Part shown: positions 31,463 through 53,610 of the stretch, piece by piece
Numbering within the stretch: the first letter of the stretch is position 1
Layout: each line of letters opens with the position of its first letter
From: Candidatus Nomurabacteria bacterium
Lineage (GTDB): Bacteria; Patescibacteriota; Minisyncoccia; Phycocordibacterales; UBA9973
Direction of reading: 5' to 3'
Length of the DNA stretch: 64,000 bases
Assembly (NCBI GenBank): GCA_026395965.1
Contig: JAPLXS010000012.1
Location: 115,977 to 179,976, forward strand
The notes under the pieces: generated by a model
Told to the model about the DNA's origin: nothing
What the model saw: the letters and a program-made list of their open reading frames with translations, nothing else
Database searches by the model: none
Translations under genes and position numbers: made by a program

Positions 31463-31639
31463 AGAAAAATTGAGATAAAATTTTAATTAAAAAGATGGAG
31501 AATTCATACAGAACCGCAATTAAGCAGGTAGAACCCTGTGTATGATTTGAATACTACCTATTCGGGTACTTTTCAATTTGCAAAGCAAATAATGAAAAGT
31601 CTTTCAAATCCCTCACGCATGTGAAGCAGTTCACATGCT

Positions 31640-31679
31640 ACCGCGCACAAAAATTGCATTAGCAATTTTTGTGCGCGGT
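31640..31679. terminator. Perfect 18-bp hairpin that includes the tRNA-Val 3' acceptor strand plus its trailer
   Basis: ACCGCGCACAAAAATTGC-atta-GCAATTTTTGTGCGCGGT. Confidence 0.5.
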
Positions 31680-31744
31680 GAGGGATTTGAACCCCCGACA
31701 TCGTCAACGTCAATGACGCGCTCTACCAACTGAGCTAACCGCGC
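31672..31744 (-). tRNA. tRNA-Val (anticodon GAC)
   Basis: Reverse complement folds as a cloverleaf: GCGCGGT-TA-GCTC-AGTTGGTA-GAGC-G-CGTCA-TTGACGT-TGACG-ATGTC-GGGGG-TTCAAAT-CCCTC-ACCGCGC-A, 73 nt, no encoded CCA. Confidence 0.85.
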
Positions 31745-31842
31745 AAGCTTTTATATTTTAAATGAAATTATAATTTTAAACTACACTACAATGCTTTTTC
31801 CACCAAGACAGCATAACCGCGCAAACTTATTCTTTACAAAGC

Positions 31843-31929
31843 GGAGGGTACAGGATTTGAACCTGTGATCCTCTTACGAGGATTACGCTTTTCGAAAGCG
31901 GTGCATTCAACCTCTCTGCCAACCCTCCG
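31843..31929 (-). tRNA. tRNA-Ser (anticodon CGA), type II with long variable arm
   Basis: Reverse complement GGAGGGT-T-G-GCA-GAGAGGTTGAA-TGC-A-CCGCT-TTCGAAA-AGCGT-AATCCTCGTAAGAGGATC-ACAGG-TTCAAAT-CCTGT-ACCCTCC-G, 87 nt, G73 discriminator. Confidence 0.8.
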
Positions 31930-35996: not shown

Positions 35997-36059
35997 TTTC
36001 TATATTTTTAAATTTTGATTTATATTACAAATAAAATAGAGTCATGTCAAATTATACAT

Positions 36060-36182
36060 AATATAGACAAGCTTTTCGATTCTCCTCACGGTTCGATTTA
36101 CTAATCGCCGGATGAGAAGCAAGCAGTTGCTTCTCATAGGGCCACAAAAGAAAAGAGCCCCACATTCGTGGGGCTCTTTTTC
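36060..36182 (+). ncRNA. Candidate small RNA: 43-nt conserved module, GCAG-loop hairpin and an intrinsic terminator
   Basis: Module 36072-36114 is identical to 38061-38103. Hairpin GAGAAGCA-agcagt-TGCTTCTC at 36114-36135. Terminator GAGCCCCACattcGTGGGGCTCttttt at 36155-36181. The element lies upstream of both flanking genes, so it is not their terminator. Confidence 0.4.
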
Positions 36183-36187
36183 TACGC

Positions 36188-36589
36188 GTGAGCCTAGTCG
36201 AGATGCGACCATGGAATTCATTATCGTGTAAGGCTTGTTTTAACTATTTGCTATTATATATTTACCCTTCTCGAGAGATAAAATTAATTAAAAGTATAAT
36301 TATATTGCTATATTGTTGTTACTTTTATATAATTATGAATATGGAAAAGTTTAAACCACAAATAAATAATAATATTGAAAATAAAGAATCGCCGGAAGAA
36401 AAACATTCAAAATGGAAAAAAGAAGCGAGGGTATTATTAGAAGGTATTGGATTTTCTACTGGTGTTATTGTGTCATTAAGTCTTATTGAAAGATATTTTG
36501 GAATTGATTTAACATCGAATGCAATAAATTTATCTGCTGTTATATCATCTATGACATATATGGGTATTAGACGCGAAAATTTGAAATAA
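36188..36589 (+). CDS. Hypothetical small membrane-associated protein
   Basis: 133-aa ORF. Its stop overlaps the next start (ATGA), suggesting a translationally coupled pair. Confidence 0.4.
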   Translation: MSLVEMRPWNSLSCKACFNYLLLYIYPSREIKLIKSIIILLYCCYFYIIMNMEKFKPQINNNIENKESPEEKHSKWKKEARVLLEGIGFSTGVIVSLSLIERYFGIDLTSNAINLSAVISSMTYMGIRRENLK

Positions 36590-36590
36590 A

Positions 36591-36881
36591 ATGATAAATA
36601 TAAATGAAATTAAAATAAAATTAAAAGAATTAGGTTTTAAAGATGAAAGTGTCGATACTATTATTTATGATGTCATTCAAGTTATTTTAGCTAAGTCGTT
36701 TGGATCATGTCTCTTGAAATTTCCGGAGAATGAGCAGTCTAAATTAAAGAAATTTTCAATAAATGAATTTGAAGAATATATAGAAAAGAATAAGGATAAA
36801 TTACCAGAATTTTCAGGTGAAGAATTTAAAAATATTTATAATGAAACTTGGAAAAACTATTTTGATACTATCTCAAAATAG
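36591..36881 (+). CDS. Hypothetical protein
   Basis: 96-aa ORF coupled to the upstream gene. Confidence 0.4.
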   Translation: MININEIKIKLKELGFKDESVDTIIYDVIQVILAKSFGSCLLKFPENEQSKLKKFSINEFEEYIEKNKDKLPEFSGEEFKNIYNETWKNYFDTISK

Positions 36882-36935
36882 TTTTAAATCGTCCAAATTT
36901 TAGCCTTATCGAGAGCTCGAATTAGCTTTCGACTT

Positions 36936-36952
36936 GGTGACCCTACCGGGAA
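36936..36952. repeat. 17-nt direct repeat identical to the 3' end of tRNA-Glu (candidate distal att site)
   Basis: ggtgaccctaccgggaa = 50502-50518. Confidence 0.7.
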
Positions 36953-37092
36953 CGGCATTAGCCTTATCTCCCTCGACTAAAACTTTTTATCAAAAAAGTT
37001 TTGTCTGGGCACCAGCTCATCTATTTTTCTTACTAGAAAAATATGATTCCGCTGTTCGATTCCCGAACACAAGCAAAGCAGTTTGCTTGCTC

Positions 37093-37146
37093 AGGGTCAC
37101 AAATTAAAAAATCTGCCTTACAGCAGATTTTTTAATTTGTGACCCT
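37093..37146. repeat. 24-bp perfect palindrome (bidirectional terminator-like) with an A6/T6-flanked stem
   Basis: AGGGTCACAAATTAAAAAATCTGC-cttaca-GCAGATTTTTTAATTTGTGACCCT. A variant copy at 38325-38371 has a different inner stem. Confidence 0.8.
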
Positions 37147-37346
37147 AGGGAGTTCAAATTGGAATCTTATTGTATATCAGATAAAGGGTTTTAAGGATAT
37201 TCTCGCCTGTTTATTAGATAAAACCTGAGTTTGTATCAATACAATAATAGATATTTTGGAAAATAAAAAAATCTGATCAATTTGATCAGATTTTAAAATA
37301 CTCTTTTTTCACGAACCAAGATAACATATTGTAGTACCAATAGGAT

Positions 37347-37895
37347 TTAATATAGATTTAACAATATATATATATTAGGAATTATAGTTTTAGAAAAACC
37401 ATTTATTTCTAAGAGAGTTTTTAAGGACTTCTTAGGAGTGAAAGATATATCATTTACTTTGACAATATCTATTCTTTCTTTCCAATCTACTTCATGAATC
37501 CAATCATAAAAACAATTCCTACGATAATGTTTATAAGCGAAATAACTTCTAGTTTCTTTTTGTTCATCTTCCTTGTATGGATTAAGTAGGACAGTTTCAA
37601 GTAAATACATAACATTTGGTATGTATTCATCAAGTTTTTTAAAGGTTCCTTGATACTCAAGATTAACTTGGTTATCATTTCCATATTCCTTATTTAAAGT
37701 TTCCATCATAATCTTTATTAAACTTTTACTATCTAAATAGGATTGATTCTCTTCCAAATCAATACCAAGAAAAATAAAATAATAAGATAAGGGTCCTTCT
37801 GTGGATTGGAGATGTAATAATTTTATTTCTGAAGGATCAAAAAATAAACCTAAAGACTTCGTAAGTTTAGTTGTAATATTTTCTTTTATTTTCAT
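37347..37895 (-). CDS. Hypothetical protein
   Basis: 182-aa ORF between the two tRNA-Glu-derived repeats. Confidence 0.4.
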   Translation of the reverse strand: MKIKENITTKLTKSLGLFFDPSEIKLLHLQSTEGPLSYYFIFLGIDLEENQSYLDSKSLIKIMMETLNKEYGNDNQVNLEYQGTFKKLDEYIPNVMYLLETVLLNPYKEDEQKETRSYFAYKHYRRNCFYDWIHEVDWKERIDIVKVNDISFTPKKSLKTLLEINGFSKTIIPNIYILLNLY

Positions 37896-38019
37896 CTTCT
37901 TATATTTAAATTGGTTATCACAAATCTCCTAAAAGACCTCTGATAACCAATCAAATATAAATTTGAAAGAACAGTAACATTAAGCAAACAATAACATTAT
38001 TATATATACTCGTCAATCT

Positions 38020-38034
38020 GTGACCCTACCGGGA
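38020..38034. repeat. 15-nt direct repeat matching the tRNA-Glu 3' end (candidate internal or older att site)
   Basis: gtgaccctaccggga. Confidence 0.65.
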
Positions 38035-38546
38035 TATCTTTCTCTACGAGAACAGTATACCTTTTCGATTCTCCTCACGGTTCGATTTACTAATCGCCGG
38101 ATGCGAGACCGGGACCGTGAGTACACTTATCGAACCTTACAGGTTCAGTACACCTTTTCCGTTCGTGAGTACACTCATAATGAAGAACTTTTTAACTCCC
38201 GGGAACCATGATTACATGTTCGGTCGCTCATAATTTTCTGCTGAAAATTTGTGCGACCCCGCCTCAGCTCGTCAGCTTCCGGCTTTCGATTTTTTAAAAT
38301 ATAAATACTTTTATATTTTAAAATCACAAATTAAAAAACCCGACCTTTCAGTCGGAGCTTTTTAATTTGTGAACGTTTAAGTAATAGAACCCATGCAATT
38401 TATTACCCCGCAAGGTTGTTTTTAATAATCTGACTTTTACATTTTAACCCTTCTCGTGCGACTATAAAAAGTGACAAAAGTGACACATCTTGAGATATAA
38501 TTATTACACCCAGGTGTCACTTTATTTAATATGATATAATGAAAAT

Positions 38547-39329
38547 ATGGAAAAATTACCTCAAAAAGTACATGAAAATAAAGATTTGGCGGTACATCTT
38601 GTAAGACATGCGAAAGCATTATATATACAAAATGAATGGGATGATATTGAAACAGCTAATGATATTGGTTCTCCAGAAGGGAAAAAACATGAATTAGACA
38701 AAATTAAAGCTACCGCAGAAAAGATAGCTTCTCTTGTTGAGAAAGGTGAAGAAATAGCTATTTGGGCTTCTCCTACAGGAAGGACTCTTGAAACAGCCAA
38801 GACTCTTAGTTTAGAGTTAAAGAATTTTGGGGTTGAAATAAGAGATGCCAAAAACTCTTATGGTGTAAATATTTTTGATCAAATAGGAGAAGTAAAAAAT
38901 TTTTCTCATGAAATATTTATGAAGTTTGTTAATGGTGGTACTATTAAAATGGAAGGAAATGATATTTTTTTAGAAAAGAAATATACTAATCCTGATAATT
39001 TACCACCTAATATTTATTTTCAACAAGATGCAATACATAATATAGATAAAAAATATAAGGATAGTTTACCCAATATACTACAGGAAGGTGTAGGTAATAT
39101 CGAAAAGTTTTATGAAGTAACAAATAGAATACAATCTGTTCTTAAAAGACTTAATAATTTACATGACAAAAAATACAGAATAATAATAGTAACACATGAT
39201 GCTCTTACTAGTTATTTAGTTAATGAATTTACTAGTGGAGATAAACAAGGAATAGATCCAGCCGAGATGGTTTCATTACTTAGAGAAAATGGCACACTAA
39301 AAGTGTGGTCAATAACTTCAAATGATTAA
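38547..39329 (+). CDS. Histidine phosphatase family (PGAM/SixA-like) protein
   Basis: N-terminal VHLVRHAK (RHG-type motif) and C-terminal IIIVTHDALTSYL (the second catalytic His region). Confidence 0.5.
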   Translation: MEKLPQKVHENKDLAVHLVRHAKALYIQNEWDDIETANDIGSPEGKKHELDKIKATAEKIASLVEKGEEIAIWASPTGRTLETAKTLSLELKNFGVEIRDAKNSYGVNIFDQIGEVKNFSHEIFMKFVNGGTIKMEGNDIFLEKKYTNPDNLPPNIYFQQDAIHNIDKKYKDSLPNILQEGVGNIEKFYEVTNRIQSVLKRLNNLHDKKYRIIIVTHDALTSYLVNEFTSGDKQGIDPAEMVSLLRENGTLKVWSITSND

Positions 39330-39733
39330 GCTCTGAATTCGTTTAGCCCATCAGAATATCCTTCAACAACTTTAATTAAAATAGGTTTTTCAAAGTATTC
39401 GATAAGACCATTGTCGAACGCCTTTTGTAATAACTCATTTGAATATAGAGGATCTAAGTTTTTAATACAGGAGAGAGTGATATGCGGGAATTTATTTTTT
39501 GATTTTATGTTTTCGACTAAAAGAGCATCTCCCTTTTCATCAGTAGCTCTACCTAAAATTTTAATATCGTATATTTCTCCAACATTTATATCATTTAAAT
39601 TATTTGGTTTAAACTCAATAGTAGAATGGTCACCAAAAACCGCTTCGTGTTTAGGTGAAAAAATTTCTAAGATTCTGTTAATATCAATTACAAATAACGC
39701 AGTGCACAAAATTTCTTTATTATCCATACTCAT
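39326..39733 (-). CDS. Hypothetical protein
   Basis: 135-aa ORF convergent with, and overlapping, the neighbouring gene end. Confidence 0.35.
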   Translation of the reverse strand: MSMDNKEILCTALFVIDINRILEIFSPKHEAVFGDHSTIEFKPNNLNDINVGEIYDIKILGRATDEKGDALLVENIKSKNKFPHITLSCIKNLDPLYSNELLQKAFDNGLIEYFEKPILIKVVEGYSDGLNEFRA

Positions 39734-39790
39734 TATTATACTATATATGTTTATTGCTTTAAAAGATATTTTGTTCTATTATCTTTATAT

Positions 39791-40342
39791 ATGATATTAA
39801 ATTCACATACAATAATTTCACCTTATACTAATGAATGGAAGGATAAATTTAGCACTGAAAAAGACTTAATTCTTGATTTATTAAAGGATAAAATTCTTGC
39901 AATAGAACATATTGGAAGTACTTCTATTCCAGGACTTTCAGCTAAACCTATCGCTGATATAGCTATCATAGTGAATGAATTTGAACCAGCAGATGTATTT
40001 AGTAAAGATTTAAGTAAGTTGGGGTATAAATACAATTCATCTAGTACTGAAAGACATTTTTATATAAAAGGAGATCCTGAGAGTTTTCATTTGTCTATTT
40101 CCTTTGCTAATAGAGGGGGTTTTTGGGTTAGACAAATACTTTTCAGAGACTACTTGAGAAATAATCCTGAATCAAAGAAAGAGTATGAGGAATTAAAAAA
40201 GAAACTTTTAACTGAAGACCCTACTGGGGTAAATTCTTATTTTGCAGGAAAAGATGCTTTTGTTAAAAAGATATTAACTTTAGCAAATTGGAAAGAAAAT
40301 CAATTGTATTCAGATTACATGAAAGATAAAAAGTTAAATTAG
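39791..40342 (+). CDS. GrpB-family (UPF0157) nucleotidyltransferase-fold protein
   Basis: IEHIGSTSIPGLSAKPIADIAIIV is the GrpB signature. Confidence 0.7.
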   Translation: MILNSHTIISPYTNEWKDKFSTEKDLILDLLKDKILAIEHIGSTSIPGLSAKPIADIAIIVNEFEPADVFSKDLSKLGYKYNSSSTERHFYIKGDPESFHLSISFANRGGFWVRQILFRDYLRNNPESKKEYEELKKKLLTEDPTGVNSYFAGKDAFVKKILTLANWKENQLYSDYMKDKKLN

Positions 40343-41409
40343 TTCAGTTTAATTGTTTTATATTGTATAAATGTATCTTCTGGTTTAGATTGTTTATATA
40401 TAAAAATCTCTTTAACTTCCATTTTTGTATTTTTTATTTTAAGGAGTTCACTTTCGATATCTTTTTTTATTATATCTGAGTAGAAACCTTTTTTAAATTG
40501 GATTAATGTAGTATGTGGTATGTATTGTGAACCTTCAAAATATCTTGATTTTAACTCAGGACTACAATTTAGCTTATTGATTAATTTATTATGCATATCA
40601 ATTAAAATTTTTGAATCTGATTCTAGATATAAAACTGAATTGTTAAATACGCCAATATTTTTAAATGAAAGTCTAAAAGATTTATAATTTTTAATTATCT
40701 CTTCAAAATTTGCAATCCATAATTCATTGGGTAATAACCCCCCAGGTGCTTTTATCGTAATATGAGGTTCAGCAAGTAATAAAACTGAGTCCAGAGAGTA
40801 TATCTTATGAATATTTAATACTAAATCTTTAACTTGTCCCAATATTGGGATCGCGATGAAATATTTTTCCTGTATAATTTGATCTTCTGAAAAGTCTAAT
40901 ATTTTTTTAACAAATTCTGTTTTTCCTGAATTATAAACTTCACCTAGAGAGAGGTCCACGAATTCTTTTTCTGGTGTAATTTTTAAATTATTTTCTTTTA
41001 AATTTTGATATTCTAAAATATGCTTCGGGTTATTAATTAAATAATCACGAAAAAGAATCTGTCTTCTCCAGAATGAAAATTTTGGAGAAGACACAGAAAG
41101 ATGATATTCTACAGGGTCACCTTTTCTACAAAAAATTCTTTCAGCTGATGACATTTTTGGATAATATACATATCCTAATTCCTGTATAAGATTAATAATA
41201 GGATCAATGTTGTCTATCGAGTTTACAAGAACGGCTATATCTATAATAGGCTTGGCTGAGAGCCCAGGGATGGAAGTACTTCCAATATGCTCAATATTTA
41301 GAACATCATATTTATTCTCAAAAGTTTTTGTTATTTTTTCTTTTTCTATTTCAAACTTGGTTTTCCAAAATTCTTGATATTTTGTGAAAAATTGATGATT
41401 ATTTTCCAT
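40339..41409 (-). CDS. GrpB domain fused to a 2H phosphoesterase (LigT-like) domain
   Basis: N-terminal IEHIGSTSIPGLSAKPIIDIAVLV (GrpB). C-terminal half has two H-x-T-x motifs (HITI and HTTL) about 85 aa apart. Confidence 0.6.
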   Translation of the reverse strand: MENNHQFFTKYQEFWKTKFEIEKEKITKTFENKYDVLNIEHIGSTSIPGLSAKPIIDIAVLVNSIDNIDPIINLIQELGYVYYPKMSSAERIFCRKGDPVEYHLSVSSPKFSFWRRQILFRDYLINNPKHILEYQNLKENNLKITPEKEFVDLSLGEVYNSGKTEFVKKILDFSEDQIIQEKYFIAIPILGQVKDLVLNIHKIYSLDSVLLLAEPHITIKAPGGLLPNELWIANFEEIIKNYKSFRLSFKNIGVFNNSVLYLESDSKILIDMHNKLINKLNCSPELKSRYFEGSQYIPHTTLIQFKKGFYSDIIKKDIESELLKIKNTKMEVKEIFIYKQSKPEDTFIQYKTIKLN

Positions 41410-41412
41410 ATA

Positions 41413-42204
41413 TTATTCGTTTTTCTTATTTTTAAATGATAATAAATTACTGTCCTCAGAATATATAAAGGTTATGTTTGGATATTTTTTTAATGAATAT
41501 TCATAAACCGCTGTATTCTTATAATAAGAGTTAGGATACATTATAACTTTTTTACCCAACATTGTACTGGCAATAGCTATGTGCAATCTGTCTGTTCTTA
41601 TTTCTTCATATTTAGATATTTCTTCTAAAAAATCTTTAATTGGTTTTTTGCAATATCCATTTTTTGAAATATCAAAATTATTTTTAGGTTTTATTTTTTT
41701 TATAGATTCGCAATCTTCTCTAAAAGCATTCAAAATACCAGTCCCATTTTTTTTGTATGAATCAAAATTATTATAAAATGCACAATCGTGCCATATATAA
41801 ACTTGGCAATTTTTGGCATATTCTTTGACGAAATCATAACTAATCATATCTCTGCAAAATATCGTGACATTATTATTTAGGGTTTCTAGTAATGATTTTT
41901 GTTTTTCTCCGTTAATTGTATGTGGTAGTATTATAACTTCTTTGTATTGTTGATTTTTTTTAATCAAAAAATCTCTAACATCAAAATAATAATCTACAAA
42001 ATTACCACCTCCATCTATAAAAAGAACATTATTATGTACACCATCTTCGGTGTTGACATATTTTAAATTTATAGATAGTTCCTCCATTAATTTTAATGTT
42101 CCATGCCATATTAAAGAATCACCATAATTACCATTGAATCTATAAAAATCAACTTCTGTATTTGAGAATCTTTTTAAATATTTTTTTAAATCCATTTCTT
42201 TCAT
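41413..42204 (-). CDS. Polysaccharide pyruvyl transferase-like protein
   Basis: N-terminal GNYGDSLI and C-terminal TDRLHIAIAS resemble the pyruvyl-transferase family. Confidence 0.45.
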   Translation of the reverse strand: MKEMDLKKYLKRFSNTEVDFYRFNGNYGDSLIWHGTLKLMEELSINLKYVNTEDGVHNNVLFIDGGGNFVDYYFDVRDFLIKKNQQYKEVIILPHTINGEKQKSLLETLNNNVTIFCRDMISYDFVKEYAKNCQVYIWHDCAFYNNFDSYKKNGTGILNAFREDCESIKKIKPKNNFDISKNGYCKKPIKDFLEEISKYEEIRTDRLHIAIASTMLGKKVIMYPNSYYKNTAVYEYSLKKYPNITFIYSEDSNLLSFKNKKNE

Positions 42205-42213
42205 AAAATAATT

Positions 42214-43893
42214 TTATATATTGTTTTTAATAACCTCAAAGACAAAATTAGGTATAATTTTGTCAAAACAAAATTCTTCACAGCAATCAATTTCTTCTTG
42301 TCTCTTTGTGTGGTTACATAATATATGCCTATTTTTGTTGTATATAGATATGGTTTCTTTATTTAAATTTAGATATTTAGGATGAGTTGCCCCAAATATC
42401 ATAAAAGACTTCTTTTTAAAACTTTGAGCTATAATGGCAGGACCAGAATCATTACCTATAAAAAACTCACAATACTTTATTAAAGATAACATTTCTTTAA
42501 AACTATTGCTGTCATCTAGAAAAATTACCTTGACTCTAAGTTCTTCTATTATTAGAAATGAAAGATCTTTATAATTTTTAATACCCCAATTTCTTTTATT
42601 TTCTTGCCACGAGCTAGTGTTCGGAGCTATTAAAACATACTTTTCTTTCATTAATACATCATGTTTATCATTAAGGAAAGGTAAATTATTAATATTTTCA
42701 TCTATTCCTGCTGATTCAGCAAATCCCTGGATATAAGTTTTGTCATTTCGTGAATTTTCATAATTTAATTTTATTTTTATATCTACACCATCAAAATCAT
42801 TTATGTCTGAATAATTTATAATTCCATCATAAGCGGGAAGTAAGTTATTGATGTTATTTATATTTGTGGCTAAGTAAACTTTATTAACGTATTTATGTAA
42901 ATATCTAGCAATGGGTTCTGTCATTATTACATCACCAAGATTTCCTTTTCTTATTAGGCAGATGGAATTAATTTCCCTGTTTTTTATTTTATTAATAAAA
43001 TATGTTTTATACCAAAAGTTTAAAGTATTATCAGTTATTATTTTATTTTTTTCTATAACTGTTCCCCAAAATGTTCTATGCTCAGAAAACCACATTTCAT
43101 TTACTTTTTCTAAATTATCTTTAAATTCGATCACGTAATTTTTAATGGTTTGTATCCTCTCAAGCCAAGGAGAATTATCATTTGAACTAGAGTCTCTTTC
43201 ATATTTTGCTAGTTTTTTCCATTTTTCATAAATCATTTTTGCTGTATTCCTGAATTCATAATGTAGTAACTTGGCTTCGTTGTAAGGAATTATAAAAGGA
43301 TTACTTGTATATGTACCAAAAAAATCAGGATTATTTCTAGACTTCACATAATGTCCACCAACCACAATTTCGATATTCTTATGATTCTTGATTATAGCTT
43401 TTCTGAAATGGCCAAACTCTTGCCATGGTTTTTCTGGCCATGGTAAATAATAACAATTTGTATCTATTGGAGTAGCTTGTGCACGACTGCATTCAAATAA
43501 TGCGTTTGCCCATCCGATAGTTGCATACACGATACCAGCTTTTTCTAGTCGATCAATAAAAGCATGAATTGTCTTATCTTTCATACTTACAAATTCATCT
43601 GCATCCAGCATAAAAAACCAATCCACTTTAAAATTTTTATTTGCAAATGAAAGTAGTTTATTCGCAATTTTTGCATGGTCAAAAACAGGGTCTTCTTCTT
43701 TGATTACAATTATTCTTTTGTCCGCATTGTAGCTTTCCAGGATATCGTTTGTTTTATCTGTTGAACAATGGTTAGCTATAAAAATATAATCAAAACCAAT
43801 ACTAAGGTGATATGATATATTCAAGTCAATAAAACTCTCCTCATTTCTAACTACCATCAAAATAGCAATTTTATTATCTGTTTTGTTCTCCAT
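42214..43893 (-). CDS. Two-domain glycosyltransferase: GT2-like N-terminus plus GT9 (heptosyltransferase-like) C-terminus
   Basis: N-terminal MVVRNEESFIDLNISYH (GT2 family). C-terminal CLIRKGNLGDVIMTEPIARYL and FIGNDSGPAIIAQSF (GT9 signature). Confidence 0.55.
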   Translation of the reverse strand: MENKTDNKIAILMVVRNEESFIDLNISYHLSIGFDYIFIANHCSTDKTNDILESYNADKRIIVIKEEDPVFDHAKIANKLLSFANKNFKVDWFFMLDADEFVSMKDKTIHAFIDRLEKAGIVYATIGWANALFECSRAQATPIDTNCYYLPWPEKPWQEFGHFRKAIIKNHKNIEIVVGGHYVKSRNNPDFFGTYTSNPFIIPYNEAKLLHYEFRNTAKMIYEKWKKLAKYERDSSSNDNSPWLERIQTIKNYVIEFKDNLEKVNEMWFSEHRTFWGTVIEKNKIITDNTLNFWYKTYFINKIKNREINSICLIRKGNLGDVIMTEPIARYLHKYVNKVYLATNINNINNLLPAYDGIINYSDINDFDGVDIKIKLNYENSRNDKTYIQGFAESAGIDENINNLPFLNDKHDVLMKEKYVLIAPNTSSWQENKRNWGIKNYKDLSFLIIEELRVKVIFLDDSNSFKEMLSLIKYCEFFIGNDSGPAIIAQSFKKKSFMIFGATHPKYLNLNKETISIYNKNRHILCNHTKRQEEIDCCEEFCFDKIIPNFVFEVIKNNI

Positions 43894-44632
43894 AAATAAT
43901 TTTATTTAAGTCCAATTTAAAACGATAAAAAGCTGGATGTTCTGGCCATGTTGCATGAAAAAGATCTATGTTATCTAAAGATTTAATTTCTAAATTTTGG
44001 TGATCACTTATTAAAGCATATTTTTCTTTCGGTAAAATTAATAGACTCCCATTCCTTAGGTATGGAGTAAGAGCAATAGCTAAAGATCCTTGTTCGTCGT
44101 GGTGGGTTTGGTTCTTGTATGAAATATTTTTCAGCCACCACTCAAATTCTCGAGCAAGATCTGGTGTTATGTCATAATTTTTCTTTTGAATAAATAATCC
44201 TGCATTTATAAAAGGTGTATCGGGTGAAGCTTTAACTTTCATTGCTCCATGTTGCCAACTTTCACCTTCAAATTCATCTAGAATTGCGAAATGTAAACTA
44301 TCATCGTTTAAAAAATTTTCAATTTCTTTTGGGTATTTTACAAGAAATACATCTGAATCTATATAAAATTCTGTCTCATCAATGTTTATTCTAGATTTGG
44401 GACACCATTTCAACCAAGTTGCTTTTGATTTAACGTCAAACATGCTTTTATTTTCTGAAAAAAAAGATTTAACTTGAGCTATGTTTTTTAAGCTTACTGG
44501 TATTGATTCAACATTGTCGGTGTATAAAATATATTTATGAGAATCACCGTACCATCTTTTAAAAGAAGAAATGCTGTATTCTAACATTTCATAATTTTTA
44601 TTATCTCCCCATATTGACCATCTAAATATCAT
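43874..44632 (-). CDS. Hypothetical nucleotide-sugar transferase-like protein (DxD motif)
   Basis: YIDSDVFL DxD-like motif; 252 aa; overlaps the neighbouring genes as in an operon. Confidence 0.35.
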   Translation of the reverse strand: MIFRWSIWGDNKNYEMLEYSISSFKRWYGDSHKYILYTDNVESIPVSLKNIAQVKSFFSENKSMFDVKSKATWLKWCPKSRINIDETEFYIDSDVFLVKYPKEIENFLNDDSLHFAILDEFEGESWQHGAMKVKASPDTPFINAGLFIQKKNYDITPDLAREFEWWLKNISYKNQTHHDEQGSLAIALTPYLRNGSLLILPKEKYALISDHQNLEIKSLDNIDLFHATWPEHPAFYRFKLDLNKIIYGEQNR

Positions 44633-45903
44633 ATATTTTCTAGAAAATTAATTAAGTTATTTGAATAATCAAAATCTTTTACTGAATTTTCATTAAGTTT
44701 TGACATATTTTTCCGATTGTCTATTGTGGTGTTAGATGCAATATAAAGAGTTTCAGCAAACATATCTATATTTAAAGGATCTACAAGGTAGCATTCATTT
44801 TTTTCAAAAGAATCTTTGACCCCATCTTTATCACTGGCAACTATTACATAGTTCATATCCTTCATAAATAGTTTAGCTTCTATGGGGGTATGTGGATTTG
44901 GATCCATTAACGATGGTAAACAAACTATATCTGTATTTTTATATCTCAAAATAGATTTCCAAATATTTTGATTAAAGTTGTTTACAACAACTACCCGAGG
45001 TAAAACATTAGCCATTTCTATTAATTTTGAATAGTATTCATCTTCTCCTGAATTATTTGGGGCTTGTAAAATAAGGAAGTGATTGGACAGTTTGTTGTTT
45101 ATTATCGCCCATGCATCAATTAATTCTTTGAAACCTTTGGCGACCGAACATCTACCCCAACTAAATATAATTTTTGACCCACTGTTTAAGTTTTGATTTA
45201 AATAGCTAATATCTTCAAATTTTGTATTCATTTTTAATGACTCTGCGTATTCACTAAATGATAATCCATTTTTAAGATAATCATTCATTGTAAAGCGTAA
45301 TCCATAATTATCGAATAAATGCTCACCGAAACTATTTCCTGTAGCTATCACTCTAGAATTTTTATCTTGATTTATTAAAGTAAAACATTCTTTTTCTATG
45401 TGAACTCTCTCATCTCTCCATATTTTATTTCCAAATACATGATTTAATCCACTACTATGTGGTAAATAATAACATTTAAGATTTTTATTAATCACTTGAT
45501 CTTTAAATTTTGAAAATAACAAAAATGGAGTATCGTGTAACATTAATATGTTTTCTTCATCTTCTTTAAGAATGAGATTTAAACTTGTGGCAAGAGAAGC
45601 GGATACATAATTCCATTCTGGAAAACTTCTCCACATATCCCACTCTGTTAGCCCCTTTGTTCCATTACACAATGGAACCATAAAGCCTTGAGTTTTGTTT
45701 ACCAGAGAGAGGCTTTTACTGTAACTTTCTTTGCTGTATGCTTTGCCTTCAGGGCTAGCTGTAATATAGGCAATACTTACCCTTATATTATTATCTTTGG
45801 CGTAATTATTTAGTGTTGCAACAGTATTTTTAGCTATTGTTCCTACTCCACAATAAAAAGTAGATAGTCCATCATATGACGCTATAATAATATGCTTTTT
45901 CAT
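44629..45903 (-). CDS. Putative glycosyltransferase (GT-B-like)
   Basis: 424-aa first gene of the glycosyltransferase operon. Weak GT4-like C-terminal features. Confidence 0.35.
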   Translation of the reverse strand: MKKHIIIASYDGLSTFYCGVGTIAKNTVATLNNYAKDNNIRVSIAYITASPEGKAYSKESYSKSLSLVNKTQGFMVPLCNGTKGLTEWDMWRSFPEWNYVSASLATSLNLILKEDEENILMLHDTPFLLFSKFKDQVINKNLKCYYLPHSSGLNHVFGNKIWRDERVHIEKECFTLINQDKNSRVIATGNSFGEHLFDNYGLRFTMNDYLKNGLSFSEYAESLKMNTKFEDISYLNQNLNSGSKIIFSWGRCSVAKGFKELIDAWAIINNKLSNHFLILQAPNNSGEDEYYSKLIEMANVLPRVVVVNNFNQNIWKSILRYKNTDIVCLPSLMDPNPHTPIEAKLFMKDMNYVIVASDKDGVKDSFEKNECYLVDPLNIDMFAETLYIASNTTIDNRKNMSKLNENSVKDFDYSNNLINFLENI

Positions 45904-46082
45904 ATGCTATTTATAATAACACATAATTTATGACTTAGCAATTGTTAATTAAATAATAACACTTCGACCTTGTTATTAAAAGTTTATTGTATCGCAGACG
46001 CTTGAAATCATAGAGGAAGTTACCAACATGTTGCCAACAATTAATGCCTTAGCAAAAGATTAAATTTCTGGCATCATTAGGT

Positions 46083-47399
46083 ATGGAGACAACCAATATA
46101 GGTCTTATTTATAACCCAATAATAGCAACTGAAACAAGGATCAAATACGTGCTGTATGCACGTAAATCGACTGAATCTGACGAGCAACAAGCATTGTCGA
46201 TAGATTCTCAGATTAAGGAAATGACCACCATAGCAGAGCGTTTAAAGCTTAATGTAGTAGCAATCAAAAGAGAGTCTCATTCAGCTAAAGCTTCAGGACA
46301 AAGACCTGTATTTAAAGAATTATTAGAGGAGATTAGCAAAGGTATCTATAACGGAATCTTAACATGGGCACCAGATAGACTTTCAAGAAATGCGGGAGAT
46401 CTAGGTACTGTTGTTGATTTTATGGATGAAAAGAAATTAATTCATATACAAACCTTTGGACAAACTTTTTCTAATTCACCGAATGAAAAATTTCTTTTAA
46501 TGATTTTATATTCTCAGGCAAAACTTGAAAATGATAATAAAAGTATAAATGTTAAACGAGGTCTAAGAGCAAGAGTAGAGATGGGATTATGGCCATGTAA
46601 ACCTCCAACTGGTTACACTAAGTTTAAAAGAATGGATCAAAAGTGTGAAGCAATAATTGATCCAGTCCGTGCACCCATCATAAAACAAATATTTGAAAAA
46701 GTTGGTTATCAAAATTGGAGTGGCAGAAAAGTATTTCATTGGTTGAAGCAAGATATAGATTTTAAAACTGAAAATAATATACATCTTAGTTTAGGAAATT
46801 TATATGTAATAATATCAAATACTTTCTATTACGGAAGATTTGAATTTCCAAAAGGTTCAGGTAATTGGTATAACGGAGCACACGAGCCAATCATATCAAA
46901 AGAACTTTTTGATTTAGTTCAAACACAAATTAAAAGTCAGATAATGGAACCGAGATCAAAACAAAAAGAATTTGCTTTCACTAGAATTATGACTTGCGGA
47001 TTGTGTAGTTCTGGAATTACGGCAGATGAAAAATTTAAAAAGCACAAAGACGGAACAGTGAGCCGTTACGTATATTATAAATGTACTAGAGTAAAAGATT
47101 CTAAATGTAAAAGTGGTTACATAAATGAAGATGACTTAATTAGACAGCTTCAAAATCTTATTGATGATCTTGAGATTCAAACAGTCCCAATGAGAGAGAA
47201 AATAACAAGTGAAGTTAAACGATTTAAGAGTTTTGAAAAAATGTTGTTAGGAAGAAAAAGCCCTGTAATTATTAAAGATATAGATATTCGTAATTATGCT
47301 AAGTTTATACTCCAAGAAGGATCAATGGACGAAAAACGAGAGTTTTTAAGGTGTTTAAATAGTAAAATTTTTTTAAATGGGAAAAAAGTAATTATTTAA
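46083..47399 (+). CDS. Large serine recombinase (resolvase/invertase catalytic domain, recombinase domain and zinc ribbon)
   Basis: N-terminal YARKSTESDEQQALSIDSQ with the catalytic Ser. Later ...APDRLSRN. C-terminal Cys cluster CGLCSSG...YYKC. 438 aa. Confidence 0.8.
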   Translation: METTNIGLIYNPIIATETRIKYVLYARKSTESDEQQALSIDSQIKEMTTIAERLKLNVVAIKRESHSAKASGQRPVFKELLEEISKGIYNGILTWAPDRLSRNAGDLGTVVDFMDEKKLIHIQTFGQTFSNSPNEKFLLMILYSQAKLENDNKSINVKRGLRARVEMGLWPCKPPTGYTKFKRMDQKCEAIIDPVRAPIIKQIFEKVGYQNWSGRKVFHWLKQDIDFKTENNIHLSLGNLYVIISNTFYYGRFEFPKGSGNWYNGAHEPIISKELFDLVQTQIKSQIMEPRSKQKEFAFTRIMTCGLCSSGITADEKFKKHKDGTVSRYVYYKCTRVKDSKCKSGYINEDDLIRQLQNLIDDLEIQTVPMREKITSEVKRFKSFEKMLLGRKSPVIIKDIDIRNYAKFILQEGSMDEKREFLRCLNSKIFLNGKKVII

Positions 47400-50300
47400 T
47401 AATTGCTTCTATTAATTTATAAGAGGTGGATTCTAGTATTTCTTTTATTTTATCTTTTGGAGTAATTAATAATTGTTCTTTTGTTTTTATTCCTGCTTTG
47501 ACTAATGCTAAATATTCTTCACGAGACATTTCAATATTTATATTTAAAAGACCAAAGCATTCTGATGGAATTCCTGTTTCTAGACTCTTAAGTAAATCTT
47601 CAAATATTTTATCTTCTAACATTTCGCCAGGAAAAATAATTGTAGCAATTTTATGAACTGACCTAAGTTGGAATCTAGTAAAATCAGCAAAGGTTCTTAT
47701 GTTGCCATAAGCGATATTACCCATATAAGGATTGTTTGATTTGAACGTTTCTTCAATATCTGGGGTTGGAATACCATTAATCCAATCAAACAGAACTGAT
47801 GCTTTTTTACATCGAGCATAATATTTAAATTCATCGCCATTTGTAAATCTTTGTAGTAATCTAACAATTTCAGGTCCAAAACGTTGAGATGCCTCTCTAG
47901 GTCGCTTAGATTCAGATGTCCCTTTTTTAAACATAGGGGTATATGTATTGTCTGATTCTGGAAGTATTTGTACTATAGCCATTAATTCATTTGCACTCAA
48001 AGAAGGGTTTTTATAATCCTTTAATAATTCAACAAGACGTAATGCTGATCTAAAAGACAATACTGATTCTCCGCATACCTTACCTAAAATAGTTAAATGA
48101 ACTAAACCATTTTCTTCTTCTGCAATACCCAATCTGACCATTTCATTATATAAATTTTCAAGCTCTTGTCTCATTTTCTTTTCCCACTCCGGATCTTTTT
48201 TATTAGCGACATAACCACCATACGTATTTGCTAGAAGATTAAATAGGTCATTTTTATGAACATCTTTTACTTGAACTAAAAGTTTTATTACCCAAGTATC
48301 AAGATCTGAAATATCAAAAGATGATATTAATGGTTCAGGTTTGCCTAAGACATATTTGTTGAACAAAAAATCTGGACTGCTTCCATTATCTGCTAAAATA
48401 ATTGCTTTTCCTTTTTCATTAAATCCTACACGACCAGCTCGTCCAGCCATATTTTTATATTCAGCAATAGTAAATATTCGTCCATTTTCACCAACAAATT
48501 CTTGTTCCGCTAAAATTGCAGTAGAAGCGGGTGTATTAATCCCCGCAGCAACTGTGGTTGTTGCTACAAGAACTTTAATTTTACTATTCGTATCACGGAA
48601 TACGCGTTCTACAATTCGTCGTTCTTCTCTGCTTAGGTTTGAATTATGAAATGCTGTTCCACCCTCGAAGCAAGTTCTAAGTTTAGAAGAAGTAGAAGAT
48701 GATGCATATCTAGGAAGCATATTAACTTCATCTAAAGCTGGAGGTAATCCAATATCAGTAGCAAGATAATTAGCAGCTCCTTCTGTTAATCCTTTTTGAT
48801 TACGAAAAATTATAATTTTTTCTCCCTTTTCAACTAGACTTTTTACAAGTGGAACAATCATATCTTGTTGACTTGGCTTGTCCTTACGTTGAACAATTTC
48901 ATGATACGGAACTAGCTGTTCCATCTTTATTTCTCCATTTTCTGAAAGATATTTAAATTGACCGTTTCTACCCATAACTCCTTCTATTAATGGAATTGGC
49001 CTTTTAGTCGTTAAAAGTTTTCTACATCCTAACCAATCTTCAAAATTATTACTATCACCAATAACTGCTGATAAAATAACTAATTGAGGATTAACACCTC
49101 GTGTTCTTACGGCAATAAGATTCGTTAACAGTAATTCTACAGATATTCCTCTGTTTAAGTCAGTGATAAATTGGGCCTCATCAAGAACTACTAAACCAAT
49201 TTGATTTAAAACAGAAGGTAATGAAATACTTAAATTTAAAAACATTTCATATGTAAAAAGTGCAATATCATACTTACCCTTAATAAATTCATTATTTTGA
49301 TCTAAATAATCTCCTGTACAACGTATTACTCTATAACCAAGTTTATTTTGATACAGATCAATAAATTGATCATATTTTTCATTAACTAATGCTTTGTAGG
49401 GAAAGAGAAAAACTGATTTTTTCCCCATGGAAACAGCCTTAGCACTGGCTAATTCACCTACAAAAGTTTTTCCAGAACTAGTCGGTGCAATTACAAGGAC
49501 TGATTCGTTCTCTAAAATTCTATATTCATTTATTGCTTCAAGTTGTAAATCATTTAATCCGTTTTTAAATAATTGGCCCCATTCTTTTGTTAATTCTTCA
49601 GGGATCCCGAATTTATTTAGCTCTTCAATTTTATTTGAAATCTTTACTCCTCTTTTTTGAGGAAAGGCATTAAAATAATTTTTTCCAGGTATAAGTTTGG
49701 GAAGTGTTAATCCTCCTGTGACATGATTTAATAAAACTGGAGTTTGAATTACTCCTATTCTACTTGCTTCAGCTCTTACAATATCCATTATGTCTCCCAT
49801 TGCCGACAACATGTTTATAGTCTCATCTTTAGATAAAGTTAGTATATCAATAAGAGCTTTTGTTAAAATTCCATGTCCTGTTGACGGTAATTCATATGAG
49901 GGTTCATCAAAATTTGAGGCAGCAATAATAAATCTTCCTTCTCCAGACAATGAATCAAGGGGGTTACCTATATTACGAGGGATAGGACTATCTTCCAAAA
50001 CTTTAGCTGGAGCACCTCCACTAAAACAACAGTCAAGTATACACAAAATATTTTTTGCTTTACTTTGCTTGAAAAGATCAGCAATCCCTTGCATGGGGAA
50101 AGTAGTTTTTTCTATGTTTATGATTTCTGTATCAAAACCAGTTATTCTGTGATCTTTAGACCCATGTCCAGAATAGAAAAAAATAATGGTATCATTTTGA
50201 GTTGCAATAGATAAGCTTTCTTCTAATGCTTTTTTAATATTATAAATATTGGCGTTAGTTCCAGTAATAATTTCACCAATAATTTCTTTATCTAACGTAT

Positions 50301-50409
50301 CAATAAAAAGATTTCCTAATGCTAATGCATCATTTTTTGCTCCACTTAAGTCTCGTATTGATGGATCTTTGTATTTATCTACTCCAATGAATTTAGCTAT
50401 TATTGCCAT
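47392..50409 (-). CDS. Caspase-like (peptidase C14/CHAT-like) domain fused to a Ski2/Hel308-like SF2 helicase; candidate defence protein
   Basis: Caspase His in IIFFYSGHG (~aa 82) and Cys in CILDCCFSGG (~aa 127). Helicase motif I VLVIAPTSSGKT (~308), motif II VVLDEAQF (~410), motif III SAV, motif VI NMAGRAGRVG. 1005 aa. Confidence 0.75.
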   Translation of the reverse strand: MAIIAKFIGVDKYKDPSIRDLSGAKNDALALGNLFIDTLDKEIIGEIITGTNANIYNIKKALEESLSIATQNDTIIFFYSGHGSKDHRITGFDTEIINIEKTTFPMQGIADLFKQSKAKNILCILDCCFSGGAPAKVLEDSPIPRNIGNPLDSLSGEGRFIIAASNFDEPSYELPSTGHGILTKALIDILTLSKDETINMLSAMGDIMDIVRAEASRIGVIQTPVLLNHVTGGLTLPKLIPGKNYFNAFPQKRGVKISNKIEELNKFGIPEELTKEWGQLFKNGLNDLQLEAINEYRILENESVLVIAPTSSGKTFVGELASAKAVSMGKKSVFLFPYKALVNEKYDQFIDLYQNKLGYRVIRCTGDYLDQNNEFIKGKYDIALFTYEMFLNLSISLPSVLNQIGLVVLDEAQFITDLNRGISVELLLTNLIAVRTRGVNPQLVILSAVIGDSNNFEDWLGCRKLLTTKRPIPLIEGVMGRNGQFKYLSENGEIKMEQLVPYHEIVQRKDKPSQQDMIVPLVKSLVEKGEKIIIFRNQKGLTEGAANYLATDIGLPPALDEVNMLPRYASSSTSSKLRTCFEGGTAFHNSNLSREERRIVERVFRDTNSKIKVLVATTTVAAGINTPASTAILAEQEFVGENGRIFTIAEYKNMAGRAGRVGFNEKGKAIILADNGSSPDFLFNKYVLGKPEPLISSFDISDLDTWVIKLLVQVKDVHKNDLFNLLANTYGGYVANKKDPEWEKKMRQELENLYNEMVRLGIAEEENGLVHLTILGKVCGESVLSFRSALRLVELLKDYKNPSLSANELMAIVQILPESDNTYTPMFKKGTSESKRPREASQRFGPEIVRLLQRFTNGDEFKYYARCKKASVLFDWINGIPTPDIEETFKSNNPYMGNIAYGNIRTFADFTRFQLRSVHKIATIIFPGEMLEDKIFEDLLKSLETGIPSECFGLLNINIEMSREEYLALVKAGIKTKEQLLITPKDKIKEILESTSYKLIEAIIK

Positions 50410-50500
50410 AATAAATAAATATTAGCACTAATAGCTATTAGATGATAGTTATAATAACAAAAAACATATTTTCATATATGCTTCTCGTGCTAGCACGTGA

Positions 50501-50575
50501 TGGTGACCCTACCGGGAATCGAACCCGGATTACCGGCTTGAAAAGCCGATGTCCTAACCGTTAGACGATAAGGCC
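50501..50575 (-). tRNA. tRNA-Glu (anticodon TTC), CCA encoded
   Basis: Reverse complement GGCCTTA-TC-GTCT-AACGGTTAG-GACA-TCGGC-TTTTCAA-GCCGG-TAAT-CCGGG-TTCGATT-CCCGG-TAGGGTC-A-CCA. Confidence 0.85.
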
Positions 50576-50609
50576 AATATTAAAACATTCTTTTAAAATG
50601 CAAATAACT

Positions 50610-50668
50610 TTACTGTACGGCTTTTACGCCGATGTCCGCTGTATCTAACTTGGTTAGACAACAAGGCC
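50610..50668 (-). pseudogene. Degenerate tRNA-Glu-like 5' fragment (no T-arm or acceptor 3' strand)
   Basis: Reverse complement GGCCTTGTTGTCTAACCAAGTTAGATACAGCGGACATCGGCGTAAAAGCCG aligns with the 5' half of the adjacent tRNA-Glu (GGCCTTATCGTCTAACGGTTAGGACATCGGC...). Confidence 0.55.
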
Positions 50669-52422: not shown

Positions 52423-52758
52423 CTATTGACCAATGGTTATATCGGTACTATTTACTTTGATATTGGTAACACCTAAAGTATTTAAAAGTATATTCATAAT
52501 CCCAAATACTGATATCATTATAAACATTCCAATGACTCCCCATATCATGAGTGATTTACTTGATTTTCGTATCTCTTCATTGTCTGGAGATAAAAGATAT
52601 CTAGTAAGCCCATAAAGGAAGTAAACAACAGCAAGAGCAAATAAAAGTACTATAAGAGGGTTTATAATAACCTTGTCTACTGCTTTCATTAGAGTTGCTA
52701 CACTTGCCTCTGCTGTTGGGATAATTCCAAAATTCATATAATTATTAACAATTTGCAC
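52423..52758 (-). CDS. T4SS-pilin-like small 2-TM protein (paralogue 1)
   Basis: 111 aa with a signal/TM helix, a short loop and a second TM helix. Paralogous to the next three genes (shared ...W(G)(V/L)I..F....SV/A...G motifs). Confidence 0.55.
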   Translation of the reverse strand: MQIVNNYMNFGIIPTAEASVATLMKAVDKVIINPLIVLLFALAVVYFLYGLTRYLLSPDNEEIRKSSKSLMIWGVIGMFIMISVFGIMNILLNTLGVTNIKVNSTDITIGQ

Positions 52759-53113: not shown

Positions 53114-53256
53114 ATTTTTAAAAACTAATTTTAAATCTAATAAACTTTAATAATATAACAATACTTTGTTAAATCCTATCGACATAGGAAATAAAAAATC
53201 AAATGTATAATTGTATTATATCAACAAGACGTGATATACACAATATTTTACTACTC

Positions 53257-53601: not shown

Positions 53602-53610
53602 ATAATTATA

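Follow-up and report, generated by a model that had tools for sequence, protein, structure and literature searches.

The intergenic region at positions 36882-37346 of a 64,000-nucleotide stretch of the Candidatus Nomurabacteria contig JAPLXS010000012.1 (the whole stretch is referred to here as the window; its G+C content is ~30%) raises the question of why pieces of a tRNA-Glu gene recur, among long palindromes, in a module that lies 13 kb away from that gene. A first-pass annotation, made from the sequence alone, had read these pieces either as the scars of repeated integration or as a structured RNA cluster. The present analysis establishes that the module is one intact member of a conserved, covarying family and not a random pile of scars, and that tRNA-Glu is an integration hotspot holding an unannotated family of structured elements, this family being what is new. 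As to its nature, our judgement tips slightly towards the region being a junction in a cassette array that grew at the 3' end of tRNA-Glu(UUC) in Paceibacteria, in which the small modules are non-autonomous, structure-dependent cassettes. Read in the sense of the tRNA, the region comprises the tail of a gene cassette (the terminator of orf182, the X arm and a tRNA-Glu core), a complete module of type A, and an arm of a decayed serine-recombinase element. The iPGM gene, which adjoins tRNA-Ser, assigns the window to Candidatus Paceibacteria (Patescibacteria), its best species-representative matches having 78% (L002) and 68% (L003) identity, L numbers being our handles for the loci compared.

The four features on which the first-pass annotation was built are real and lie far beyond chance expectation. 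The exact copy of the tRNA-Glu 3' end, noted as 17 nt, extends to the last 18 nt of the gene (TGGTGACCCTACCGGGAA, 36935-36952, identical to 50501-50518), and a 17-mer of this end has three matches in the window at up to three mismatches as compared to 0.01 expected, the third of which (15/17, 38019-38035) had been missed. The 9-mer core GTGACCCTA occurs four times exactly and in one orientation (at 36937, 37139, 38020 and 50503). The hairpin at 36975-37005 is present, its stem consisting of 10 + 3 bp with one bulged T, and hence of 13 pairs instead of the 14 bp claimed. The sense-oriented tRNA 3' half, said to be interrupted by a GCAG-loop hairpin just as at tRNA-Val, was recovered: 37054-37065 (GTTCGATTCCCG) and 37093-37100 (AGGGTCAC) match tRNA-Glu nt 52-63 and 66-73 in plus orientation and are parted by the hairpin CAAGCAAA-gcag-TTTGCTTG (37070-37089), and the same split-hairpin design is seen beside tRNA-Val at 31603-31648, with its hairpin at 31617-31638. 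The 24-bp palindrome proposed for 37093-37146 is perfect, with arms at 37093-37116 and 37123-37146. When compared to shuffled sequences, a 221-nt stretch of the region folds with z = -13.7 as DNA (-64.5 kcal/mol) and with z = -10.1 and -11.7 as RNA of the two strands.

These features are the parts of a single unit. In tRNA sense, positions 37147 to 36935 of the minus strand represent one complete module of ~210 nt, in which a 9-nt tRNA-Glu core is followed by a terminator hairpin, an inverted tRNA 3' half split by a second hairpin (H1), a cloverleaf-like body and an 18-nt repeat (Table 1). The tRNA 3' half and the palindrome arm are both built-in parts of the module and not independent attachment-site (att) scars. 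H1 is inserted at the junction of the T stem and the acceptor stem of the inverted copy and its loop is mostly CTGC in tRNA sense, while its stems covary and contain almost no non-Watson-Crick pairs. The type A body is made up of the PA arm with a hairpin at 37021-37044, the helix hpB at 36975-37005, which is the hairpin of the first-pass annotation, the motif GATAAG and a mini-hairpin at 36954-36963; the element that is invariant in type A bodies, GGTGCCCAG, is found at 37005-37013 (plus strand CTGGGCACC).

Table 1. Features of the window that bear on the module and on the tRNA-Glu array, in order from the tRNA-Glu gene outward
Feature	Position	Strand	Basis
tRNA-Glu(UUC), array anchor; repeated core formed by its last 18 nt	50501-50575	minus	ARAGORN and Rfam
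Island alpha, ~12.1 kb	38373-50500		Pfam, PADLOC, PHROGs
Large serine recombinase (LSR), 438 aa	46083-47399		Resolvase, Recombinase and Zn_ribbon_recom domains; PHROG 95 'integrase'
Relic modules	38019-38372	minus	comparison with type B and type C bodies
Gene cassette beta	37268-38018	minus	
X arm, degenerate and tRNA-Glu-like, without anticodon arm; closes cassette beta	37148-37230	minus	
Core TAGGGTCAC, tRNA-Glu nt 65-73; displaced tRNA end and tip of the outer palindrome arm	37139-37147	minus	
A/T-rich hairpin with A-tract and T-tract; bidirectional terminator-like tip of the 24-bp palindrome	37101-37138		
Inverted acceptor 3' strand, GTGACCCT on the minus strand	37093-37100	minus	
Hairpin H1, 8-bp variable stem, loop CTGC (GCAG on the plus strand)	37070-37089	minus	
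Inverted T loop and T-stem 3' strand, CGGGAATCGAAC on the minus strand	37053-37065	minus	
Type A body	36953-37052	minus	alignment A1 and consensus fold
Direct repeat TTCCCGGTAGGGTCACCA at the module's 3' end; equals the final 18 nt of tRNA-Glu, CCA included	36935-36952	minus	
Palindromic arm, start of decayed element delta	36903-36934	minus	alignment A2
Unit epsilon	36042-36196	minus	
tRNA-Ser	31841-31928	minus	
tRNA-Val	31671-31744	minus	
Same architecture behind tRNA-Val, with Val-specific inverted copies; H1 at 31617-31638	31600-31670	minus	

The distribution of this design was determined with a three-block pattern, AGGGTCAC-N-GTGACCCT-N-CGGGAATCG, representing a tRNA end, the inverted acceptor strand and the inverted T arm; an earlier pattern, GTGACCCT-N-CGGGAATCG, was too loose, and its 12 matches in viral contigs were dropped as chance hits in DNA of high G+C content. 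The three-block scan returned 33 metagenome loci, 31 of which are true instances, as compared to approximately one chance match estimated beforehand. Most of the 31 modules directly follow an intact tRNA-Glu, and without exception their orientation is that of the tRNA. Behind the tRNA-Glu(CUC) of L003, the tRNA end TAGGGTCAC is followed by an A/T-rich hairpin, inverted GTGACCCTA, a hairpin with a CTGC loop, the inverted T arm, a body of ~100 nt and the direct repeat TCCCGGTAGGGTCACCA, which is the order of parts seen from 37147 to 36935 on the minus strand of the window. In the relatives, the module stands immediately behind an intact tRNA, its first hairpin is terminator-like, and its distal 18-nt repeat is a second tRNA end. 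The A/T-rich hairpin is present in all 31 homologous loci and is hypervariable in sequence. In L099 the tRNA-Glu is identical to that of the window at 73/73 positions and is followed at once by the terminator hairpin and a type A body that shares 90.5% identity with that of the window; the hairpin sequence is not conserved, and the outer flanks of the two loci are unalignable (~50%). In this locus, as in L111, the end of the intact tRNA takes the place of the core at 37139-37147. The tRNA-Glu of L099, L111 and other relatives abuts the terminator hairpin and type A module, and L099 represents the unoccupied state of the tRNA-Glu site. The first-pass annotation had held that finding the same intergenic sequence in relatives devoid of an island would mark these structures as native elements and not att scars; as far as the module is concerned, this is the arrangement the relatives display, with their module directly behind an intact tRNA-Glu.

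The structure of the module is backed by strong covariation. In an alignment of nine type A sequences, which includes the Asp and Thr units of another genome, the consensus is a four-way structure of 46 pairs that is 94.6% paired, and changes on both sides were observed in 29 of the 46 pairs, a value reached by 0/500 shuffles, while slid controls pair at 39-50%. The stem pairs comprise 347 Watson-Crick, 11 GU and 7 AC pairs, with no G-U excess and no strand bias. The H1 stems of the tRNA-Val units of the window and L100 differ at three pairs, all of them compensated, although their terminator hairpins are identical.

Modules of this design were found at eight tRNA types. They follow tRNA-Val in the window and in L100, tRNA-Ser in L098, L100 and L114, and five tRNAs (Met, Asp, Thr, Thr and Met) in L036, with a tRNA-Gln instance in L009 and a variant at tRNA-Arg in L007. 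The flanking direct repeats are variable in length (10-25 nt) and matched to the adjacent tRNA for Glu, Val, Ser, Met, Asp and Thr; the Gln and Arg modules of L009 and L007 have an inverted copy or a body, and their distal repeat is not clear. The L007 unit (11840-11975, minus strand), from a more distant member of the Paceibacterota, follows tRNA-Arg(CCT) and carries a type C body without a distal repeat, and its H1-like hairpin, with loop CTGA, forms the tip of the palindrome behind the tRNA. Three types of body are distinguished: type A, the type of the studied region, by its invariant element, type B by GAAAAGGTGTACTG, a hairpin and GATAAG, and type C by CGGAG, GAG and GGGGTCGCG. All three were found at one and the same tRNA, and homologous bodies occur at different tRNAs. 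Tandem arrays and truncated copies are present in L108, L112, L113, L124, L125, L036 and the window, and occupancy is patchy: the orthologous tRNA-Ser is empty in the window and L002 and filled in L100 and L114, and occupancy also differs at the orthologous tRNA-Val. When read as its reverse complement, the terminator hairpin of L095 matches that of L099 at 43/43 positions, a flip-flop between two loci of the same metagenome, Ga0172379. Module and flank are identical between L116 and L126, which have different tRNA-Glu isoacceptors and whose terminator hairpins are roughly inverted to each other when compared by hand. A search with the Rfam 15 models, at gathering and at permissive thresholds (E up to 10), recovered only the three tRNAs of the window and no family for the module; the best sub-threshold matches were to terminator-like small RNA and microRNA models, and L036 was likewise without a family. 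No description of the module was found in the literature searched.

The module of the window differs from those of most relatives in being separated from its tRNA, and the sequence between them has the organization of an array. Next to tRNA-Glu lies island alpha, which encodes a caspase-HamB-like helicase, the LSR, glycosyltransferases, GrpB and LigT genes and a histidine phosphatase, and which ends distally in a degenerate T-arm-like arm terminating in TCAC. It is followed by relic modules consisting of a hairpin (38324-38372), a type C body (~38200-38290), type B pieces (38036-38185) and the 15/17 core at 38019-38035, and then by cassette beta with a promoter-like site (37988-38016), orf182 (37347-37895, no family match) and a terminator hairpin (37268-37294). 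The X arm that closes this cassette is a single copy in the window and is kept in L109 (4 copies), L120, L122 (3 copies) and L124. Beyond the intact module and the arm of element delta, unit epsilon contains the core-like GTGAGCCTA (36188-36196), a terminator hairpin (36151-36180), an inverted acceptor (36138-36145), H1 (36112-36137), half of a type B body and, at 36072-36117, one copy of a 46-nt repeat. The same order of tRNA-Glu, LSR island, type A module and X-arm cassettes as in the window was found in L109. Single-gene cassettes of 0.6-1.3 kb, each closed by an X arm, were observed in L122 (300-3400 in tRNA sense) and L109 (9700-12800), interleaved with type A and B modules; judged by eye, one of the cassette ORFs (open reading frames) looks hydrolase-like and another PAS-like.

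The repeated integration scars suggested by the first-pass annotation are thus borne out in so far as there is a tandem array with same-orientation tRNA-Glu cores and an LSR island between the tRNA and this region, but most of the 465 bp is not decayed scar. The alternative of a structured RNA cluster may hold in part, in that the structure may act as RNA or as DNA, but it is a single structured unit and not a cluster.

Contigs of the Logan resource from the same sample, which are 100% identical to the window, served as an independent check of the assembly. Their ends at 36098, 37002, 38057 and 38061 coincide with repeats and hairpins, and 36099-37001 is not covered by an independent Logan contig, which is a caveat for this part of the assembly; exact-protein look-ups in the contig index, aimed at strain-level variants and at an unoccupied site within this sample, had matches in the same sample only and revealed no variants. 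The 46-nt direct repeat noted in epsilon recurs at 38061-38106 with 98% identity and brackets a 1,943-bp segment that includes the studied region. The two copies are overlapping halves of one L114-like type B module, and the Logan contigs break exactly at this repeat. Recombination across it would free a circle of 1,989 bp carrying the intact module and cassettes beta, gamma and delta.

The LSR provides a further link between the array and tRNA ends. It has 33 relatives in IMG/VR contigs, at 43-60% identity, and in 13 of the 33 a convergent tRNA lies within 4.3 kb of the recombinase stop codon; among these, L129 has tRNA-Glu at a distance of 125 nt, while L135 has tRNA-Asp and L158 has tRNA-Gln. 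Elements with a tRNA-associated LSR lie exactly at cores of the kind repeated here. The arm at 36934-36903 is homologous to the element-side arm beside tRNA-Glu in the LSR prophage locus L129, ~24-27 of 32-33 positions being identical by hand count. From this alignment we infer that the tRNA-end copy at 36935 may be where the module, by its distal repeat, has become joined to an arm left by a decayed LSR-type element, and that the distal repeat probably served as a secondary integration site.

Taken together, the module is inferred to serve recombination as a non-autonomous cassette, and not to act as a small RNA. Modules of ~130-215 nt (types A, B and C) would insert or recombine at the segment of tRNA genes running from the T loop to the 3' end; their folded recombination substrate would be made up jointly of a long helix, in which the tRNA-derived repeat pairs with its inverted copy, of H1 and of the cloverleaf-like body. 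Each insertion would rebuild the tRNA end from element DNA and shift the old end, with all that lies behind it, outward, and such insertion and shift would give rise to the cores in the same orientation at 50503, 38020, 37139 and 36937. Mobile or recombining behaviour is suggested by the tRNA-specific direct repeats, the several bodies per tRNA, the tandem and truncated copies, the patchy occupancy and the bodies shared across tRNAs. A number of observations weigh against viewing the modules as cassettes. No free or circular form of the module was seen, and pattern scans of the viral collection detected neither the module nor the X arm; among the 33 LSR-bearing viral loci, too, none has a module. 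No gene of any kind recurs beside the modules, be it for an integrase or other recombinase, HUH protein, reverse transcriptase, Cas1 or transposase, their neighbours being ordinary core genes (TrxB, FtsZ, FtsA, iPGM and pilins). No tyrosine integrase or Phage_integrase domain was found among the ORFs scanned from 29.7 to 63.6 kb or in the precomputed Pfam assignments for 22-30 kb. Serine recombinases exchange strands at a 2-bp core and do not need 18 nt of identity, so the small modules are probably moved by something other than the LSR. In addition, the model does not explain how one body type gains inverted and direct copies that fit each tRNA. Two further observations sit uneasily with it or lack an explanation, namely the H1 differences between the tRNA-Val units of the window and L100 in the presence of identical terminator hairpins, and the reverse-complemented terminator hairpins of L095 and L099. 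Finally, conservation of the body equals that of the tRNA even as the hairpin stems turn over, which hints at a function in tRNA sense, and the purine-rich unpaired positions and a recurrent G-U pair in type C hint at such a function as well, possibly that of an RNA.

The main rival, a real though unlikely possibility, is that the module encodes a structured non-coding RNA, transcribed in tRNA sense by read-through or from a start of its own, whose ends mimic the tRNA 3' half, which might, for instance, serve a 3' processing step common to both or a role as decoy or sponge, with the arrays and repeats as by-products of duplication. The strong covariation, the conserved loops and junctions (GATAAG, GGTGCCCAG and a tandem GA-type internal loop), the constant orientation relative to the tRNA and a body that is 90% conserved where the flanks are unalignable are all as expected of an RNA, and so is the purine content of the unpaired positions of the tRNA-sense strand, which is 69% as compared to 51% for paired positions. 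The G-U pair, as read by eye, recurs at one helix position of type C in L007, L114, L116 and L036. On the other hand, the module stands behind a strong terminator-like hairpin and a conserved promoter was not found, there is no overall excess of G-U pairs, Rfam yields no match even at E up to 10, and the patchy occupancy, the three bodies at one tRNA and the tandem and truncated copies are atypical of a housekeeping RNA.

A broader and more doubtful proposition is that Paceibacteria carry previously undescribed structured cassettes of 130-215 nt that function as folded recombination sites, or as RNA-guided or self-templated elements, in a tRNA-anchored, integron-like system. Each cassette would bear the 3' half of its neighbouring tRNA in both orientations, forming a closing helix with the additional variable-stem hairpin, and would fold into the conserved four-way body. 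The tRNA-matching segments would then be exchangeable targeting parts, because the same body is found with Glu-, Val-, Ser-, Thr-, Asp-, Met- and Arg-specific ends. We consider it improbable that the module is specifically a recombination site of folded single-stranded DNA, like the attC of integrons or the attP hairpin of CTX phage, in which the repeat and the inverted copy rebuild a duplex mimicking the end of the tRNA gene and H1 acts as an extrahelical strand marker. The nearly exclusive Watson-Crick pairing of the stems and their fast, fully compensated turnover would suit a DNA fold, for which the folding energy and z score given above are also favourable, and the arrays have a single primary site as their anchor, with the units placed where one cassette borders on the next; the flip-flop of the L095 and L099 terminator hairpins points the same way. 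Against it, the ORFs examined, in the window as well as beside the modules, did not include an IntI-like or Xer-like recombinase, attC R/L boxes are absent, a dif-like site was not noticed in the region, where no explicit dif search was made, the cassettes bear promoter-like and terminator sites of their own, and neither a single-stranded element nor a circle was detected.

That the region is merely a functionless mixture of decaying att scars and pseudo-tRNA debris is very improbable. Degenerate arms and truncated units do occur nearby (the X arm, the relics at 38019-38372 and the unit at 36042-36196), but the 210-nt unit is intact and 90% identical to copies elsewhere whose flanks cannot be aligned, compensatory changes affect 29 of 46 pairs in a design found at eight tRNA types, and the diversity of the stems argues against recent transfer of one sequence. 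Least credible of all is the notion that the inverted tRNA 3' half derives from a second tRNA gene, convergent to tRNA-Glu and ending at the same bidirectional terminator: such a pair, if identical at their 3' ends, would indeed yield the palindrome, and L116 and L126, with one module, two isoacceptors and roughly inverted terminators (by hand), could be read in this way, but in every case the inverted copy ends at T-loop position 53/54 and bears H1 at one and the same junction, it has a conserved body unrelated to tRNA behind it and it is also present at Val, Met, Asp, Thr, Gln and Ser, while the Rfam tRNA model matches nothing there and a complete convergent tRNA was seen in 0/31 loci.

Several other candidates were dropped. 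Hammerhead, twister-type and other small ribozymes, tmRNA, 6S RNA and RNase P were discarded on the lack of Rfam matches and on inspection. For a bridge or seek RNA of IS110/IS1111, both guide-like segments are on the same strand and a DEDD transposase is missing; for a homing spacer of a CRISPR-associated transposon, the copy is split by a hairpin and Cas12k and Tns are missing. Group II or IIC introns were rejected on the insufficient size of the units and their lack of a domain V, and IS200/IS605 ends or repetitive extragenic palindromes as there is no Y1 transposase and flanking repeats are present. The primer-binding site of a tRNA-primed retroelement does not fit an inverted copy located at the 5' edge of the unit, without a reverse transcriptase, and a split or permuted tRNA lacks the matching 5' half in register.

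The surroundings of the tRNA genes and the cargo of the island contain further features of note. Between a TGcTATACT promoter-like site and the real tRNA-Glu lies a degenerate copy of the tRNA-Glu 5' half (GGCCTTGTTGTCTAACC...CATCGGCGTAAAAGCCG, 50600-50668, minus strand), such that the tRNA transcript would begin with a mimic of its own 5' half, and a similar leader is kept in L095, L096, L103 and L118. A 9-nt copy of the tRNA-Val 5' end (GCGCGGTTA, 31814-31822) is present in the spacer of tRNA-Ser and tRNA-Val, 70 nt upstream of the tRNA-Val start, and L096 has a similar partial tRNA start. Upstream of tRNA-Glu, five genes at 52423-55464 have T4SS-pilin-like domains, one of them also TIG domains, and were taken as core flank and not as part of the island. 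Within the island and beside tRNA-Glu, 47392-50409 (minus strand) encodes a 1005-aa fusion of a caspase (Peptidase_C14) and a Hachiman HamB-like DEAD helicase. This gene has the appearance of a defence gene, and a HamA partner for it was not seen. The cluster at 39326-41409 encodes GrpB, a fusion of GrpB and a 2',5' RNA ligase (LigT-like), a small protein with a weak tRNA-ligase CPD match and a histidine phosphatase, and may represent cargo for the repair or modification of RNA ends.

tRNA genes are the classic landing sites of mobile DNA, and the landing site described here bears a conserved, folded, gene-free unit that is repeated behind many tRNAs of a lineage of the candidate phyla radiation (CPR). 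Should the modules be mobile or substrates of recombination, they would represent a novel route to cassette arrays in bacteria whose genomes are tiny and a possible source of compact, retargetable integration sites; should they be RNAs, they would constitute a new tRNA-linked RNA family. In either case they account for assembly breaks beside tRNA genes in these genomes, and the module offers a simple sequence signature for variable islands in Patescibacteria, here including one with a Hachiman-like caspase-helicase gene.

Large serine recombinases of the phiC31/Bxb1/TnpX type act as integrases of prophages and integrative elements. The recombinase of the window resembles such integrases (PHROG 95) in its Resolvase, Recombinase and zinc-ribbon domains and in the position of its gene near the element end and convergent to the target gene, but the target here is a tRNA 3' end, which would be regenerated, and its putative att sites are those indicated by the comparison of junctions. 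Integrons carry a cassette array beside one primary site, a tyrosine recombinase, IntI, and attC sites with R''/L''-L'/R' boxes (GTTRRRY). The present array is similar in its small cassettes beside a fixed primary site and in boundary elements that are kept in structure and not in stem sequence, whereas the scanned ORFs of the window include no IntI, the cassettes have promoter-like and terminator signals of their own, and the boundaries mimic a tRNA end; in place of R and L boxes, the ends of the module are tRNA-derived, GTGACCCT...CGGGAATCG and TTCCCGGTAGGGTCAC. In the CTX-type integrative mobile elements exploiting Xer, with their folded attP and XerCD/dif, the target likewise differs from the tRNA end used here.

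The closest known counterpart of the array as a whole is found in the tycheposon islands of Prochlorococcus, where successive tRNA integrations push older elements and partial tRNAs outward (bioRxiv 10.1101/2020.12.28.424599). As in those islands, an intact tRNA stands at one edge, partial copies in the same orientation separate the elements, newer insertions shift older ones outward while degraded remnants stay, and the integrase can be an LSR (bioRxiv 10.1101/2020.12.28.424599). The attributes of a tRNA-targeting island, namely an intact tRNA, distal repeats in the same orientation, an internal recombinase and a site unoccupied in relatives, were all found for the array of the window. Here, by contrast, a conserved and covarying module without coding sequence contains the repeats together with an inverted tRNA half and the hairpin inserted in it, many units are gene-free and only 130-215 nt long, the host belongs to the CPR, and no replication module was seen. 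Cis-mobilizable elements that retain only att sites (CIMEs), miniature inverted-repeat transposable elements (MITEs) and the interspersed mosaic elements BIME and NIME are also short non-coding units with recombination-site repeats, tandem copies and long hairpins, but the ends of the present units are direct and inverted copies of the adjacent tRNA 3' half that vary with the tRNA, and their internal four-way structure is strongly conserved. MITEs have terminal inverted repeats, a short target duplication of fixed length and a matching transposase in the genome; the type A ends are inverted repeats by virtue of the pairing between the tRNA half and the inverted copy, the flanking repeats are tRNA-specific and vary from 10 to 25 nt, and a transposase was not found beside the modules. 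Bidirectional intrinsic terminators share with the palindrome tip a hairpin with a G+C core, an A-tract and a T-tract, and a position directly after the tRNA; a consensus terminator scan missed this tip because the T-run lies inside the stem, and the complementarity here, unlike that of a terminator, runs on into acceptor and T-arm sequence of the tRNA. The module is set apart from tRNA islands, attC, the attP of CTX, and MITE, CIME and mosaic repeats by its inverted tRNA half, its inserted hairpin, its four-way body and its distal repeat.

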